Shown here in pieces: positions 1,586-48,650 of a stretch of 64,000 nt of DNA (position 1 is the stretch's first letter; every line of letters begins with the position of its first letter). The position numbers and the translations under genes were made by a program. The notes below the pieces were generated by a model. That model was given only the letters and a program-made list of their open reading frames with translations. It was not told the origin of the DNA and ran no database searches. The stretch is from IMG/VR virus record IMGVR_UViG_3300024270_000002; one strand, written 5' to 3'. Origin of the DNA: a virus (Duplodnaviria > Caudoviricetes).

Positions 1586-3475
1586 ATGGCAAATAACGTG
1601 ATTAATAAGTTAACTGGTGCTACTTCTGGCAAGGAGTATAAAATCAAAGGATACTCAAGTATGCCTTCGTTTGGGCCCATTGCAGGCTTTTCAAGAGGTT
1701 ATAGCAATCTATTTGAGGGATATGACGGTCAAGAATTTAAATATCAATACGATACGCATGGAAAGTATTTTCCTGAAGGACATTTTGCAGGAGTAGGTTT
1801 ATATATAGACTATTCTGAACAACAGTATTACTGGTATGTGGCGTCTCGTTATGTGATAGCATCCTACACTAACTACGAACATTTTTCTATCGATTTTTAT
1901 AGCTTTTCAGGAGAAAAGAAGCAGCCCACTTCAAAACCATATGTTTGTTATTTTGACGGAAGTCAGTATGACTGTTTTGAAGCGACTGGTGTTACAGAAG
2001 TTGGTAGGTGGGATTTCCCTTCTAGTGGGTTTTTTCTAACAGACGAATATGGTATGAAAGAGTTTATAAATGGTGTGCGTCCTGAAAGTGATGTATTGTT
2101 AGGATCTTCATTAGGTTTCTGGCTATTTGATAGTGGAACTGAATGGACATGCTTTATGGAAGGTACAAAGATTGCAATGGCAGATGGCACCACTAAGAAT
2201 ATTGAAGATGTTCAAGTTCATGATGAAGTTGCTTATTTAAATGATAACGGAGAGTTATTAAGTACTAAAGTTGTTCTTCCTGTTAATATTCACGAAGGAG
2301 AAACAGATAATTATGTAGAATACATCTTTAGTAATGGCACTTCTCTTAACATTTATGAGAAACAGCGTCTTTGGAATGAAGATGAAAAGAAGTATACTAT
2401 TGTTCAAAATTGGCCTATTGGAACAAGAACTAAAACAGTTCAAGGCGAAATTATTTCTTTGGTTAACAAGATTTCTCATAAGCTTGAAACACCTAAGAAG
2501 CACTATTTCTTACAAACATTCTCAGGTGTATATGCTGTAAACGATATTCTTACGTATACTTCTCAAGATACTATCTGGGATGAGTGGTCTAGGGAAGAGA
2601 ATAAACAGTATTGGCTTGATGAAAAGACAATGCAAAATCAGAAGAAGAAGGTTATTACAAGAAGATACGAAAATCATCCTAACTTATATAAATACTTTAG
2701 AGATGCTTTAAATAACTGGAATTCACTTCAGAGTGAACTGAGCGATCGTATCTTAGCCAACAAAAAGTATTTAAATGATACTGACTATCTTGTAATCAAG
2801 TATACAGAGGGCTTGATTGATGAAGCTTCTTACGAAACAGAAAGAGTTAAGCGTGCAGATGCAAGATCTCAGATCAATGAAGATCAAGAAACACTAACAA
2901 AGGAACAATCTTATATCGATGCTCTTAAAAATAAGTATGCACTTAAGAGTACTCATCCTCGTGCTTCCTCTCAGGGTGCTGAAAGCTTAGTTCTTATGGC
3001 TGATGGAACTACTAAGGCAATCAAAGATGTTGAGGCAGGAGATGTTATTTGTTATTTGAATGACAATCATGAGCTTGCTCAAACTCAAGTTATGTTACCT
3101 CCTGAGCCAGAGCTTATTTGGGATTATCATCTTGTATCTTTAGATAACGGAACTGAATTAAGAATGAGCGGTAAGAGAGAAATTTACAATGTTTCTCAAG
3201 ATAAATATTGCTATCAGCAAGATTGCTTAATTGGTGACGAAATTCTTCTAAGTGATGGAAGTAAAGCAAAAATTCTTAAAGTTACAAAAGTAAGACCTAA
3301 GAATGGAGAAGAGTTCTATAGATTGAATACTCGTTCTGGAAGATATATTCTAAACGGAATCTCTATCGGAGGTGACTCTAAGAGAAATTACAAGGATATG
3401 TTATGGGAAGAGCATGAATATTGGAGACCTTCTGACGAATTCATGTCAGAATGGAAGGCTGAATGCGGTCTATAA
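1586..3475 (+). CDS. Tail-associated protein with two tandem Hint (intein-like) domains flanking a tail-fibre-assembly-like helix
   Basis: CFMEGTKIAMADG...YAVNDIL (2150-2560) and SQGAESLVLMADG...YILNGI (2969-3373). The linker carries LNDTDYLVIKxxE...RADARSQINE. Confidence 0.75.
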   Translation: MANNVINKLTGATSGKEYKIKGYSSMPSFGPIAGFSRGYSNLFEGYDGQEFKYQYDTHGKYFPEGHFAGVGLYIDYSEQQYYWYVASRYVIASYTNYEHFSIDFYSFSGEKKQPTSKPYVCYFDGSQYDCFEATGVTEVGRWDFPSSGFFLTDEYGMKEFINGVRPESDVLLGSSLGFWLFDSGTEWTCFMEGTKIAMADGTTKNIEDVQVHDEVAYLNDNGELLSTKVVLPVNIHEGETDNYVEYIFSNGTSLNIYEKQRLWNEDEKKYTIVQNWPIGTRTKTVQGEIISLVNKISHKLETPKKHYFLQTFSGVYAVNDILTYTSQDTIWDEWSREENKQYWLDEKTMQNQKKKVITRRYENHPNLYKYFRDALNNWNSLQSELSDRILANKKYLNDTDYLVIKYTEGLIDEASYETERVKRADARSQINEDQETLTKEQSYIDALKNKYALKSTHPRASSQGAESLVLMADGTTKAIKDVEAGDVICYLNDNHELAQTQVMLPPEPELIWDYHLVSLDNGTELRMSGKREIYNVSQDKYCYQQDCLIGDEILLSDGSKAKILKVTKVRPKNGEEFYRLNTRSGRYILNGISIGGDSKRNYKDMLWEEHEYWRPSDEFMSEWKAECGL

Positions 3476-7646: not shown

Positions 7647-7754
7647 GGTAAGAGTATGAATATAAAATTATGCCAATGTTAAACCACTGTCAATGGCCAG
7701 CAGTGCGAGACTAGGCATATTTAAAATAATAAAATTTTAAAGGAGGCATATCAA

Positions 7755-21057: not shown

Positions 21058-21120
21058 TAAATACATAAAAAATTACTGAGACAATTTCAAAAATTTCAAT
21101 TTTTTATTGTATAATATAAC

Positions 21121-21195
21121 ATAAGATGAAAATCTTGTAAACAAGTTTCCTCCTTTGTTTCGTGCGCCGGATGTTTCCTCCCGTCCGGCGCTATT
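21121..21195 (+). ncRNA. Candidate sRNA or structured leader with two GUUUCCUCC anti-SD loops
   Basis: Promoter at 21107; hairpins aagat-GAAA-atctt, aaacaa-gtttcctcct-ttgttt and gcgccggat-gtttcctccc-gtccggcgc. Confidence 0.65.
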
Positions 21196-21219
21196 ATTAT
21201 AATTTAAGGATTTTACAAA

Positions 21220-21842: not shown

Positions 21843-21932
21843 TAGGTGAGTGCGAGTATGTGGTGTCATTGGCATCTGGGGCGATGAGGTAAAACTCGTC
21901 GTCCCACCTCCTTTTTAGGGCCTTAACCTATT
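21843..21932 (+). ncRNA. Candidate structured RNA upstream of nrdD with CACCUCCUUU
   Basis: Promoter at 21830; GC-rich hairpin ggggcgatgag/ctcgtcgtccc; closing taggt/accta. Confidence 0.5.
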
Positions 21933-22005
21933 ATCGTAATTGGCTAAATTAAGTACAAGAGTTTCTACTCTTTAGACATAATATTTTAAAAGAAAGGTTT
22001 AATTT

Positions 22006-25992: not shown

Positions 25993-26029
25993 GGGTTTAC
26001 AAAGCAATTCCTTCATTATATAATAAGAG

Positions 26030-26165
26030 AGTGTTCCAAACACAACCTATTATATTCAAACGTTATTCAGTAGGCTCATAAGGAAGAGCAGTGGCAGCAT
26101 CCTCATACTAATTACCTTAACTCCTTCAATCCCCCGAGTTAGCTCTTCCTTATGCTGTCTTCTAC
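26030..26165 (+). ncRNA. Candidate early sRNA with a C-rich loop
   Basis: Promoter at 25996-26024 with no downstream gene; 13-bp stem cataaggaagagc/gctcttccttatg enclosing taactc-cttcaatccccc-gagtta. Confidence 0.6.
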
Positions 26166-41800: not shown

Positions 41801-43187
41801 TTAAGGAGGACAGAAAGAATGTCTGAAAATGAGAAGTATCCTATTAAAGAAGAGTGGGAAGAATACTACAAAGTGCTCGAAGGTATCAGAAGAACCGGAG
41901 TCTGTAATATGTTCGGCGCTTCGCCTTACCTGAAGGAGTTCTGCCCTGAACTTTCTGAGAAAGAGTCTCAGGAGATTCTTTGCAACTGGATTCATAACTA
42001 TGATGCCTTGAACGAAAAGTACGGCTGGAGGAATTAAGCTATGAAGGTTATCTCTACTACTGATCTTTCTCGACCTGGAAATGATTGTTATATCTACGAA
42101 TCAGTTTCTTTGGTAGAGCAATTCGAGCTCTTCTCTGTGATTCGTTACTGGAGAGTTACAGGCTGGTCAGACCGAGAAGAAGTTTCTGTGCTATATACTT
42201 CGCTTTCACGAAGCTCAGCAGCAGAAAGATATAAAAGCTACGGCGGAAAAATTTAAATAAAAGAAAGGATTACATATACAAATGAATACTACTAATAATA
42301 CTATCAAGAACCTCGCTGAATGGATCGAAAGCTTGAAGCAGTTTGCAGAAGGTGATCACGAACTTCTTATCTCTTGGTTTAAGGATACTAAAGACAAACC
42401 TTTCTCTATCGTCGGTGGTTGGCAGAAGATGTTTAAGGAAGACTACTCAGATCTCTTCTGCTGTAGTAAGTCTCAGCCTGAGTATGTGATGTGTGTTAAG
42501 ATCGTAAAGAACGAAGGACCTTACGCTTACACAGACTTTGATACTATGAACATGCCGACAGATTCTTTCGGCAATGTAGACGACACCTGCATCCCTCTCG
42601 AGTGGGACGACTCTGCAGATGCTGCCGCTGCCTTCTTTCTTTGTGAGTGGGAAAGAATCATGGCGGAGTACGAGGAGGACAGAGAATGAGCAATTGGCTT
42701 ACTGAAGCAGTTGCACGCGAAGCCGCTTATGATGAAGGCTACGAAGCCGGTAAGCTTTGCGCTGCACAACAGATCTTAGATGACCTCGAAGAAGTTATTA
42801 AGGAGAAACGAGAAGGGTATAGACAGACTCGGGAAAAGCATAAGTCAATAGATTACCACGAGAGCTATAGCTATTGGCTTGGTCGTGGACTAACCTGTGG
42901 CGAGATCCTTATGCTGCTGACTGAGCTTAAAAAGAAATATGGAATAGACTAAGAGTCTAAGTAATTGATATCGTATAATAAAATATAAAAACAAAAGGAG
43001 AATAAAAATTATGTTTGGAAAATATGAAACTTGGAAGATTGTTTACGTTCCTACTATTATGAATAATGGAGCAAGAGGTGTTGCTCTTGTAGAAGCCGTA
43101 GATAGACAACATGCAATGAATCAGTTTCAGCAGCAATACACCGGGCAGTTCCATACAGTAGAGTCCTGCACTAAGCTGCTCGGCTAA
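35880..43187 (+). other. Dense array of about 25 small hypothetical CDSs (e.g. 35880, 36186, 36584, 36897, 37201, 37670, 38044, 38265, 38724, 39415, 39674, 39925, 40109, 40279, 40819, 41081, 41407, 41819, 42041, 42282, 43011)
   Basis: Abutting or overlapping + strand ORFs with RBSs, punctuated by early promoters. Confidence 0.7.
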
Positions 43188-43241
43188 AAAGAATTTAGGG
43201 AGTAGTATCAAAATTTAGAAAATAATGCCGTATAATATTAT

Positions 43242-43476
43242 AGAACAGAACGTTGCGAGGGTTACGGTGCGTTTGATACTTAGGTATATTTCTTTTCTTT
43301 CTTCTCTTTTCACCTCCCTCCTTTTTCGAAAAATAAGTGTGTTCATATAAGACCACTCGCAGCGTTCGTTCGCCTCCTTCGTTTGTCATAATAAAAGTAA
43401 ATAAGTTCGGATGCCTCCTTTCTAAAGTTAATTTTATCTTATTTCTTTTAAGACCGTTGCTGCGGTCTTTTTCTTT
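43242..43476 (+). ncRNA. Candidate sRNA of about 230 nt with three anti-SD tracts and its own terminator
   Basis: Promoter at 43228; stem gaacgttgcgag/ctcgcagcgttc; CACCUCCCUCCUUU, GCCUCCUUC and GGAUGCCUCCUUUCUA tracts; terminator aagaccg-ttgctg-cggtctt plus T tract. Confidence 0.7.
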
Positions 43477-43509
43477 TTATATCGTATAATATAATAAAGG
43501 AGAATACTA

Positions 43510-46500
43510 ATGAGTAGATACGTTATTTATTACAGTACCAGGAAGTGTATGTTCAGAGACCTCGCGAGTACCTGGAAAGCTTGGGCAGAAGAAGCTCACT
43601 TAGATGAAAGCCAGCTAAGAGGAATGTCGCTCTTCTTCCGGCATATAGGAAGAAGATTCGGGTTAATAAATGAATTCAAAGATATTGGTGTTATCTAAAT
43701 GTTTACAATTTGGTAATAACTTTTTTTTGAAAAAGGGTTTTACAAATTATGGAAAACATGTTATAATAAATACATAAGAAATAAGAACGACAAACTAAAA
43801 AAATTAGAAGGAGATTGAATTATGTTTAACACAAAACTTATCGACAAGTTCTACGAAGCTTTATTCTGTACTGACTTTAAAGATTATACGAGCGCAACAC
43901 AAAATGAAAAAACGGACTGTCTCTCCGAATGTAAAGATTTTGATGAGTGGCTTGATAGACTTATTAATGTCTTTGCAGATGAAGAAGAAGTTAATGCTGT
44001 AGAGGTTAGAACCGCAGCACTCGCAGACAAGAAGTTTATTGAGACAATGAAAGCTGAGTATGAAGAGCTTCTTGAACTCTGTGACGATGAAGATGATGAA
44101 GAAGATTTCAACGATGAAGATTAAGGAGAACAACATATGTTTTATTACACAGTAGAATCCAGTCACTGGCCGATGAACCTCGAGTTCAAATCCACTATTG
44201 AGATGAAGGAAGGACAATGCTTCAGAATCCTTTCTCACAGTAATCTCATTAAGAACTATCCTACTAGATTTAAGGTATTGAGTGTTTCGGATACTCCTAC
44301 CTTCTCTGGTCCGATAGTAGAGATTACCGATGTAGACTTTAATGTCGAAACCTTTTAATTAAATAAGAGTGCACGGGAAACTATTAAAATCCAGTGCACT
44401 TTTTCTATTTACAAATATCGGTAAATGGAGTATAATATAAATATAAAATAAAAGAATGTGAGGCATTTAATATGGAAAGAAATGGAAAGACTTTTATTAT
44501 TGTAACAGATGATTTCTTAACTAAAGATGTTTTCTTAACCTTTAAGGATTCTGACCTAGGCTGCACGACAGTAGATTGGTTAGAAGAAATGATAGAGTAT
44601 GATTTCTCGGATACCATCGAAGAGGCTCTACATAAAGCAGAGCAGGCGAATAGCATGACTCTCGGCGGCTGGCCAAGTCCTATGAAGATCACTGAAGTAC
44701 TTAACTTTAACTCTGCTTTCACCGGCGACGAAGAACCTGAACTTAAAACAGTTAGAACCCTTACTTTCCATAGATAATTTGCTTAGATACAAAAGATAAA
44801 GTATAAAATAAAAAGTGAGGTATATAATATGAAGACGGGAAGACTTAAAGAATTATGTTTATTGGTTTGGGCTCTATTAACTGATGAGGAAAAGGAAGCC
44901 TACTTCTACGGAACCGGAACTATCGAGTTTATAGAAGATGTCGCTAAACTATTTAGTATAGAAGCTGGTGAGCTTTCAGAAGAATTTATTGACGAAGTAG
45001 CAGAACAGCTTTAATAGCTACATAAGAGTCGTATAATATTATGCGGCTCTTTTTTATTTGTAAACAATTTATTAACAACTCATCAAAGGGGTTTACAAAA
45101 TAAGAAATGTATGGTATAATATAAATAGAATAAATCAGGGAGGATTACATAATGCTTAAGATAATCAGAGAAAGAAGACCCCTTAAGTTCAGAGACTATA
45201 CAATCGAATATAGATACAAGGATGATCCTGAAGCTGGCTTCACCTTTCCTGCTACTTGCCACGGTGACCCAGATTTCTCCTGTATGGGCCGAGAGATGTT
45301 GGCTAACTACGAAGCTTGCCTCACTGATAAACGGCTGACAGAGGGAGAATTTACTAAGCACGAATGGACCTATATGGAACCGGCTCTTGGTATCTGCTCT
45401 TGTGGTAAGGAACTTACCCTCGACTGTGACCATGCCGGAGCTGTACAGTGCGAGTGCGGAAAGTGGTACAACCTGTTCGGTCAGTCACTTATTGATCCTA
45501 AGTACTGGTACAGAGATGAAGATGACTACTACTCTGATATGGAGGATTAACTAATGACTTACTATCACGGAACATCGATAGCGGGACTTACTGAAATTCT
45601 TCCTCCAGTGGATACAGCTGTACTGAGAGAAGATTTTAGAAAGAAGTTTTTAGATTGTGTATTTGTTACACCTCTCAAAAAGTCTGCAGAAGCTTATGCT
45701 AGAAAGTGTGCTTCTAAATTCGGTGGCAAGCCTGTAGTATATGAAGTAAAACCAATTAATCCAATTGAGATAAATGTGTCTCAGTACATTTGTGATAAAG
45801 CTTTGGTAATACGGGAGGTTTAAATGTATAAGCTAGAACTTACAGAAGAAGAACTACAGTTTCTGCATGATAGATGTGTCAGCAAGATTGCAAGACTAGA
45901 AGAAGCACACCTTGAGGATGTCCCTTGCTATCGTTTATCTTGGCAGGTGTTGCATAAGATTTATGAAGCTCGTGGTTTAAAGAATACTACAGAGGAGAAG
46001 TTTTAAGATGAAGATTAAGTTTATAACCTTTAGACCTTGCTATGGCGGAGTATATGGTGTTGTAGTTAAGGATACTGCTACAGTGTTAAATGAGTGGTTA
46101 GAAGAAAATCCTGATGTAGAAATCGTCAGCTGGCAAACTACTCCGGTAGGAGCAGAAAACGAACTTTATATTACTATTCAGTACAAGGAGCAGGAGGACT
46201 GACTATGGATACTAAGCAGATGTTAAAAGACGGCTTTAAAAAGAAGCAGGTAGCTTTACTTATCTATAAGGATAGCTACAACGGAAAAGAACATATCGTA
46301 GTAGTTGATACTCCGGAGCATGCGAAAGAATATAAGACCTCAGAAACTATGAGGCTTGCTACTATGTATATTAAGGAGAATTGATATGAGAGCAAATGAA
46401 AAGAAGATGATTCTACACTATCTACATGTCGCTCATAATGATTGGTTAGCCGCAAAGCTACTGGGTAAACAGCAACCCAGATCTTCTCAGTTTCCTACCA

Positions 46501-48482: not shown

Positions 48483-48522
48483 AAAATATATTTACAAACC
48501 TTTCTTACTGTGATATAATAAC

Positions 48523-48650
48523 TCTGGACTAATGCTTATCCAGATCATATTAATGTCGCATTGAGAAGGGAGGTAGGTACTTTTATATTAATAATTGAAT
48601 AGCTGTCTTTTGTTTATTACCGGTCAACTAAAAGTGGCCGGTAATTTTTA
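48523..48650 (+). ncRNA. Candidate early sRNA with an orphan SD-like AAGGGAGGU
   Basis: Promoter at 48491-48519; 5' hairpin tctgga/tccaga; terminator taccggtca/tggccggta; no properly spaced start codon. Confidence 0.5.

Follow-up and report, generated by a model that had tools for sequence, protein, structure and literature searches.

Between the genes for a 58-aa and a 62-aa protein, the phage DNA analyzed here (a stretch of 64,000 nt, referred to as the window) holds a predicted RNA unit on the + strand (Table 1). Reading of the window confirmed the promoter box, inverted repeat, pyrimidine tract, and terminator that an earlier sequence-only reading had described. The RNA is predicted to fold at -51.4 kcal/mol (z = -2.7). 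The 12-nt inverted repeat (43248-43259 and 43356-43367) proved to be the core of a longer stem, P1, of about 20 bp. Within the P1 loop, TCACCTCC occupies 43310-43317, and the two overlapping CCUCC motifs have predicted unpaired probabilities of 0.74 (43313) and 0.90 (43317). The CCUCC motif of the linker recurs at the equivalent place in two distinct viral versions of the RNA (L004 and L005). The P2 loop displays GCCUCCUUUCUAAA; its CCUCC (43414-43418) lies in a 10-nt identity with the 3' tail of 16S rRNA, and GGATGCCTCCTTTCTA (as RNA, GGAUGCCUCCUUUCUA) spans 43409-43424.

Table 1. Predicted RNA unit and its elements (window positions)
Feature	Position	Strand	Basis and remarks
Predicted RNA, about 237 nt	43242-43478	+	Fold and homologous units; 5' end uncertain by about 5 nt, 3' end inside the U tract
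Upstream box AAAATTTAGAAAA, conserved	43211-43223	+	Most family members, at the same spacing to the -10 box
Promoter -10 element, YG plus TATAAT, here CGTATAAT	43229-43236	+	Same place in all 14 members
P1, 5' arm	43243-43263	+	Pairs with 43351-43371; covariation
C/U-rich tract in the P1 loop, with UCACCUCCCUCC at 43310-43321	43290-43326	+	Two overlapping CCUCC motifs, at 43313 and 43317
P1, 3' arm	43351-43371	+	Pairs with 43243-43263; covariation
Single-stranded linker, with the third CCUCC at 43373-43377 within CGCCUCCUUCGUUUG	43372-43391	+	Unpaired probability, 0.98
P2 hairpin, stem AAAAGUAAAUAAG / CUUAUUUCUUUU	43392-43450	+	Inverted repeat and fold
Intrinsic terminator, 8-bp GC-rich hairpin (43450-43469) followed by UUUUUCUUUUU	43450-43478	+	U run; kept in all members

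The window corresponds to the reverse strand of a 127.8-kb IMG/VR record with an estimated completeness of 55%. Because a protein identical to the 58-aa neighbor of the RNA is found on contigs of up to 243.5 kb, and because a relative (G001, 96% complete) measures 220 kb, we regard the source as a jumbo phage. Its GC content is about 38%, and almost all of its genes lie on the + strand and have strong Shine-Dalgarno (SD) sites. The host is likely an anaerobic Firmicute of the gut: the phage encodes an anaerobic ribonucleotide reductase, and two relatives were binned in Clostridia metagenome-assembled genomes (MAGs), one of them from water buffalo cecum. The phage is present in ruminant and other gut samples. 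A search for the 16S tail in the Clostridia MAG that holds L065, which probably lacks the rRNA end, gave no match. No tRNA or tmRNA gene was found in a search for such genes. Elsewhere in the window (1586-3472), a 629-aa protein with a Hint/homing-endonuclease-associated Hint domain suggests an intein inside a large phage gene.

The promoter of the RNA has no -35 hexamer at the canonical spacing of 16 to 18 nt. At the equivalent position, YGTAT(A/T)(A/C)T is present in 14 of 14 family members. Between the TTTAGA of the upstream box AAAATTTAGAAAA and the first -10 hexamer there are only 11 nt; for a second, overlapping hexamer, the distance is 16 nt. P1 pairing starts about 7 nt past the first hexamer, at alignment column 9, and the upstream hexamer is favored for this reason. 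In the window, CGTATAAT occurs 7 times against 2.3 expected; six of these copies are on the + strand, several of them just 5' of genes. Three promoter-like classes recur in the window and in G001, namely, TTTACA-N17-TATAAT, YGTATAAT without a -35 hexamer at canonical spacing, and GCTAAATTA.

Relatives of the 58-aa gene directly upstream of the RNA were found in five viral contigs and 64 protein clusters, and the 58-aa protein is present on 26 contigs. We read 15 relatives: two distinct viral versions (L004 and L005), 12 further contigs, and one GTDB contig. With the window included, the RNA is present in 14 of 16 distinct loci that carry the 58-aa gene, i.e., in 13 of 15 relatives, and each of the 14 RNAs has a -10 box and a hairpin/U-run terminator. 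L061 and L065 have the 58-aa gene and lack the RNA, which therefore appears to be dispensable in some lineages. The homologous units of the 13 other loci measure 178 to 330 nt, and there is one copy per genome. In all members, the RNA starts about 6 to 7 nt past the YGTATAAT-type box with (A)GAGCGCUGCGGAG or a variant of it, and a long-range closing stem and a final GC-rich hairpin with a U run are common to all.

Covariation was assessed for P1. Over the 13 outer pairs of the alignment, 91% of the cells pair, compared with 29 to 56% when the 3' partner is slid by 1 to 3 columns. Changes on both sides occur in 11 of these pairs, and the covariation score was reached by none of 500 column shuffles, a count that is not a probability because the sequences share kinship. 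In L004, L005, and L060, the helix sequence has been almost wholly replaced. Given this near-total replacement and the slid controls, a conserved P1 helix is the only reasonable reading. Terminator stems likewise differ in sequence among members, with pairing always retained. Because the P2 stem hardly varies among the members in which it occurs, P2 is neither supported nor opposed by covariation, and the 3' domains are too divergent between subtypes for a single alignment.

Searches by other routes added no members. No Rfam family reached its gathering score over the whole window, and a permissive scan of 43150-43550 returned only unrelated families as best matches (E ≥ 2.7) and no small-subunit (SSU) rRNA match. 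A blastn search of 43000-43700 against deposited phage genomes gave no match. DNA pattern scans of viral contigs recovered only the two lineages already reached via the 58-aa protein; two matches in the single metagenome that was scanned were rejected as chance. For the 62-aa downstream protein, a search of viral contigs by the pattern route returned no relatives. With a defined fold and 14 members, the family can be entered in RNA family collections and used in searches of gut metatranscriptomes.

The comparison supports a non-coding, independent transcription unit on the + strand, as judged from sequence. The corresponding stretches of the 13 relatives are ORF-free (gap of 280 to 430 nt where the flanking genes were called); the longest frames that can be read in them are short, lie on either strand, and are mutually unrelated, and L005 has no ORF of at least 25 aa. 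No conserved ORF was found on either strand of the 14 members. It might be argued that the locus is no RNA gene and that its tracts are the SD sites of small minus-strand genes, or what is left of such genes in decay. In favor of this view, the minus-strand sequences of the tracts are AAAGGAGG, GAAGGAGG, and AAAGGAGGGAGGTG; ORFs of 64 and 43 aa are present on that strand of the window; and, among 99 copies of the 14-nt tail TCACCTCCTTTCTA in other viral contigs, at least 75 are the SD site of an opposite-strand gene. However, no minus-strand start codon lies at working distance from the three SD-like sites, the terminator reads as functional on the + strand only, both the source genome and G001 are read nearly entirely from one strand, and the P1 covariation points to an RNA fold. 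The 64-aa ORF, whose translation and conservation the sequence-only reading had named as one danger to its own proposal, is confined to the window, being absent or unrelated in the 13 relatives. We therefore reject a coding reading of the unit, and minus-strand genes are a highly improbable explanation of the tracts.

The position of the unit raises the question of whether it acts in cis, as the 3' untranslated region (UTR) of the 58-aa transcript or as a read-through leader of the 62-aa gene that folds onto a neighboring ribosome-binding site. No terminator separates the 58-aa gene from the RNA, the order 58-aa gene, RNA, 62-aa gene is kept in 11 of 12 gene-catalogue loci (including those retained in the family), and 43415-43430 shows a weak complement (75%) to the downstream SD region at 43487-43502. 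Nevertheless, a conserved promoter lies directly upstream of the RNA, and its strong, conserved terminator is directly followed by a fresh promoter. L004 and L005 keep the RNA next to a different or distant downstream gene. Moreover, the flanking SD sites are ordinary and show no covariation with the nearest motif. A cis element is thus very unlikely, and the independent unit named above is the reading that we carry forward.

As to the neighbors themselves, the 58-aa protein (43011-43187) is predicted to form a three-stranded sheet and one helix (pLDDT 91). Its best Foldseek matches, both weak, are T7 Gp2 and the RNA polymerase epsilon subunit YkzG (E values of 0.4 to 0.6, TM scores of 0.58 to 0.73), so that, on the modeled fold, it may be a small polymerase-binding early protein; because the fold matches are weak, we claim no link between this protein and the RNA. 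In related phages, an HPr kinase/phosphorylase-like gene lies just 3' of the 62-aa gene, and Lar-type restriction-alleviation genes lie upstream (L057, 2314-3183; L055, 340-573; L056, 381-791). These neighbors fit a host-takeover region.

The three anti-SD tracts reported from the window alone proved to hold four CCTCC pentamers (43313, 43317, 43373, and 43414) and to be a conserved, exposed feature across the 14 members. The complete 127.8-kb record contains only 23 CCTCC pentamers on its sense strand, and 4 of them fall inside 106 nt of this RNA; dinucleotide shuffles of the RNA contain 0.19 on average. Altogether, the 14 RNAs contain 42 CCUCC motifs, compared with 3.7 ± 1.9 in dinucleotide-preserving shuffles (maximum of 10 in 1,000). 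Each RNA exposes two to four of them. The P1 loop holds one or two in every member; otherwise the location shifts between P1 loop, linker, P2 loop, and terminator loop, the last of which carries CCUCC in five members. The mean predicted unpaired probability of the motifs is 0.84 against a whole-RNA background of 0.52, and 35 of the 42 exceed 0.7; burial of the tracts in stems, which the sequence-only reading had considered, is thus not what the folds predict. With a G content of just 8 to 18%, the RNAs have almost no means of masking their own motifs. We conclude that the CCUCC motif is a selected feature of the RNA family.

Every member shares 8 to 13 nt with the Firmicute 16S tail GAUCACCUCCUUUCU, as found in Bacillus subtilis (PMC5732282) and, in the form AUCACCUCCUUUCU, in Clostridium acetobutylicum (PMC1904277). 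The motif is often extended to CACCUCCUUUCU; identity reaches 13 of 15 nt in L055, L059, L062, and L064 and is 10 nt in the window. The likeness to the 16S end that had been noticed at 43409-43424 therefore holds family-wide. The RNAs make no use of the E. coli-type ending (CCUCCUUA, with UUA). In the source genome, only two places have a sense-strand match to the tail of at least 10 nt, namely, this RNA (43414) and a second small RNA (21905). In G001, all three such matches lie inside this RNA. A lone tail motif is not diagnostic, since most copies in viral contigs are the ordinary opposite-strand SD sites mentioned above. The special feature is the combination of sense orientation, several copies, no ORF, a promoter and terminator, and a conserved fold.

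On either side of CCUCC, the bases agree with the 16S tail (A on the 5' side, UUUCU on the 3' side) and not with the complement of the typical SD site of the phage, UAAGGAGGA; they thus fit a tail mimic or host targets as well as SD pairing. One might accordingly see in the exposed CACCUCCUUUCU copies a decoy for a protein that recognizes the free 3' tail of the small subunit, such as a host or defense endoribonuclease with its cleavage site in the anti-SD region, a 3' exonuclease, or a factor that binds the tail, e.g., Era, so that ribosomes would be protected or re-programmed during infection. Cleavage of 16S rRNA within the anti-SD region is a property of some MazF-type toxins, and the sequence bound by Era is GAUCACCUCC. 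In addition to the flanks, the extent of identity with the Firmicute tail and the presence of several copies per RNA, which is typical of sponges, speak for such a decoy. On the other hand, the phage motif, unlike the 16S tail, is internal, repeated, and placed in loops; it is never a free 3' end after helix 45, no helix-45-like context surrounds it, and SSU rRNA was not matched in Rfam. The GAUCA part recognized by Era is absent or unconserved. Degenerate copies of the motif retain the pairing core (CUCCUUUCU and UCCUUUCU), not a fixed protein site, and no candidate partner protein was identified. A protein decoy is, in our estimation, quite unlikely, and the term "16S-tail mimic," introduced by the sequence-only reading, is valid for the sequence alone. 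Nor does the RNA resemble a type III antitoxin-like decoy array with tandem repeats of about 30 to 40 nt: its direct repeats are short and dispersed (for example, a 16-nt pair with 81% identity around two CCUCC motifs), and the spacing and flanks of the motifs vary among members.

With two to four exposed copies of the sequence with which the ribosome docks, the RNA most likely blocks ribosome-binding sites. Predicted duplexes between its motifs and SD sites have energies of about -8 to -12.7 kcal/mol for most SD-bearing leaders, and the use of strong SD sites throughout the phage is a further point in favor of SD masking. Neither duplex folding against all initiation regions nor a search for exact complements singled out a target above the low-complexity background. 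Duplex folding does not discriminate here because C/U-rich sequence pairs with purine-rich sequence everywhere; exact complements of at least 10 nt are 2.8 standard deviations above shuffles and lie mostly in A/G-rich coding sequence.

Could the RNA serve to regulate just one phage message, or a few? An example would be late gene 7755, the leader of which had been noted to resemble the complement of the third tract; translation of such a message would be held until the RNA decays or is titrated. The resemblance is real as far as it goes: positions 43411-43421 have a perfect 11-nt complement in AAAGGAGGCAT (7739-7749), which spans the SD site, 5 nt upstream of the start codon (the extended complement is AUGCCUCCUUU plus AAUUUUAU). 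It is the sole complement of at least 11 nt that includes GGAGG in an initiation region. Gene 7755 comes first after a late-type GCTAAATTA, and GGAGG is found in only one other gene in such a position. However, owing to low sequence complexity, the match is one of about 20 complements of 11 to 12 nt and is unexceptional. The AUG that extends it is peculiar to the copy of this phage. The GGAU before the third tract is likewise seen in this phage only (relatives show UGUA or UAUA). For every segment of the RNA, gene 7755 falls outside the best 10 predicted duplexes. The 96%-complete G001 has the RNA but gave no homolog of the gene, and gene 7755 was rejected as a conserved target for this reason. 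In addition, the variation in motif number and position suits many targets better than one. We consider a dedicated regulator unlikely.

A class of targets is suggested by SD usage instead. In the source genome, GGAGG is present in 7 of 10 first genes after early-type promoters (TTTACA-N17-TATAAT) and in 2 of 18 first genes after the late-type motif GCTAAATTA (P = 0.003, in a test picked after seeing the data). G001 shows the same trend, weak and not significant (4 of 11 early versus 4 of 22 late; P = 0.39). As the leaders of late genes mostly lack GGAGG, a timer that holds back late genes, which the sequence-only reading had proposed as one possibility, is not favored. The counts are only suggestive, and what they suggest is that host and early messages are shut off, not that late genes are held back. 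SD type also varies by region of the window, GGAGG being found in 50 to 69% of genes at 24 to 40 kb and in 0 to 17% in large-gene regions.

Four further RNAs or RNA-like units were noticed in the window. (i) A second promoter-driven RNA of about 80 nt (21118-21200; fold z = -6.2) has UUUCCUCC in each of two hairpin loops, and its homolog in G001 lies at about 212442-212473 on the sense strand. This twin-loop RNA has the same promoter type as the RNA at 43242-43478 and its own terminator-like hairpin, and it shares CCUCCUUUGU with the linker motif of L004; it differs in having two motifs and no long-range stem and in showing no overall alignment with the larger RNA. Being directly upstream of a gene, it possibly has a leader role. 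Its presence in G001 implies that the phage clade keeps at least two anti-SD RNAs. (ii) A structured RNA at 21843-21945 (z = -3.7) follows an CGTATAAT box 5' of the anaerobic ribonucleotide reductase gene and carries CACCUCCUUU, which, apart from the RNA at 43242-43478, is the sole sense-strand sequence of the genome to match 10 nt of the 16S tail. (iii) At 48491-48650, a canonical early promoter is followed by a strong terminator with no usable ORF. This RNA carries AGGGAGGU, which is exactly complementary to ACCUCCCU (43312-43319). As a candidate partner of the RNA at 43242-43478 it was set aside, since the four related records in which it was sought contain no homolog. (iv) At 25996-26165, an early promoter precedes an RNA devoid of ORFs, in which a perfect stem of 13 bp is accompanied by single-stranded segments rich in C (z = -4.4).

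Taken on balance, the RNA at 43242-43478 is probably a phage-encoded, trans-acting, multivalent small regulatory RNA that masks SD sites, since its design matches that of the C-rich, SD-blocking RNAs of low-GC Gram-positive bacteria. The pairing to SD sites, the target class, and the timing are what we infer from this design. Sequence and comparison support transcription of the RNA from its own -10-type promoter, an end at its own terminator, and a structure in which P1, the second hairpin, and the terminator hairpin hold two to four anti-SD copies in loops and linkers. Each exposed copy could pair with the GGAGG-type ribosome-binding site of an mRNA, so that one RNA could silence several messages; pairing would exclude the 30S subunit and perhaps mark the duplex for RNase III. 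As the strength of pairing would obey the rule of the ribosome itself, messages with a long GGAGG should be hit hardest, i.e., host messages and many phage early genes, and those with short GGAG or AGGA sites, including most late-operon leaders, should largely escape. AAGGAGG, a long site, is found, for example, at genes 41819 and 7755, and AGGAGA, a short one, at gene 35126. The likely role would be a shut-off of host and early-gene translation at the switch to later stages of infection. Since phage genes share SD sites, a strong general competitor would harm the phage too, unless timing or SD length protects it.

More tentatively, it is possible, although we think it doubtful, that free-floating copies of the ribosome tail allow a virulent jumbo phage to re-programme translation class-wide or, in a bolder variant, that these copies are decoys that shield ribosomes from a host anti-SD nuclease. 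If the class-wide reading is true, messages with a long GGAGG (host and phage early) would be masked while late messages with short sites would still be read. SD masking as proposed above would, if it takes place, be a simple and general viral way of sorting messages by ribosome-binding-site strength. It would also explain why the clade keeps at least two such RNAs and would provide a compact, naturally occurring element with which translation in Gram-positive bacteria could be tuned. In phage T4, the endoribonuclease RegB inactivates early messages by attacking GGAG in ribosome-binding sites. The shut-off logic is the same as that proposed for the phage RNA, which in the class-wide reading would be an RNA-only counterpart of RegB; RegB, however, is a protein nuclease of a phage with a Gram-negative host, whereas here an RNA would mask the site.

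The closest parallels are found among small RNAs of Gram-positive bacteria. LhrC1 to LhrC5 of Listeria monocytogenes have redundant C/U-rich sites in a hairpin loop, a single-stranded linker, and a terminator loop; by pairing with a target at its G-rich ribosome-binding region, any one of these sites can block translation, and a single LhrC RNA may bind several messages (Sievers et al. 2014; PMC4132741). UCCC motifs are used likewise by RNAIII, RsaE, SprD, and FsrA (PMC4132741). The placement of motifs across loops, linker, and terminator loop equals that in the phage family, in which each member exposes two to four CCUCC motifs. The differences are considerable. LhrC RNAs are about 100 nt long, chromosomal and multicopy, under LisRK control, and induced by envelope stress, and their core is UCCC, whereas the phage RNA is 178 to 330 nt long, encoded by a large phage in one copy per genome, and has a long-range closing stem and the full CCUCC, often within 10 to 13 nt of the 16S tail. 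Rfam scans of the window detected no sequence or model similarity to LhrC. RsaE/RoxS, RNAIII, SprD, and FsrA also pair with SD sequences through exposed C-rich loop motifs, block initiation, and act largely without Hfq in low-GC Gram-positive bacteria. They differ from the phage RNA in being host-encoded regulators of metabolism or virulence with defined regulons and in having partial anti-SD motifs with target-specific flanks. Because the motif of the phage RNA equals the tail of the ribosome, its specificity should mirror that of the ribosome. Of the traits that mark the SD-blocking C-rich class, the phage RNA has an independent non-coding unit, seen in its sequence, and a motif predicted to be single-stranded in a conserved fold.

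Phage small RNAs described in the literature that we covered are mostly prophage regulators in Gram-negative hosts, with a few prophage-borne staphylococcal ones such as SprY, and a review of them contains nothing of the anti-SD type (PMC12197685). In our literature search, no large Firmicute phage of lytic type was reported to have a small RNA built from anti-SD sequence. By analogy, the phage RNA most likely works like LhrC, RsaE, and RNAIII while standing outside those families, and its use of the full anti-SD sequence and its phage-borne nature are most likely new.
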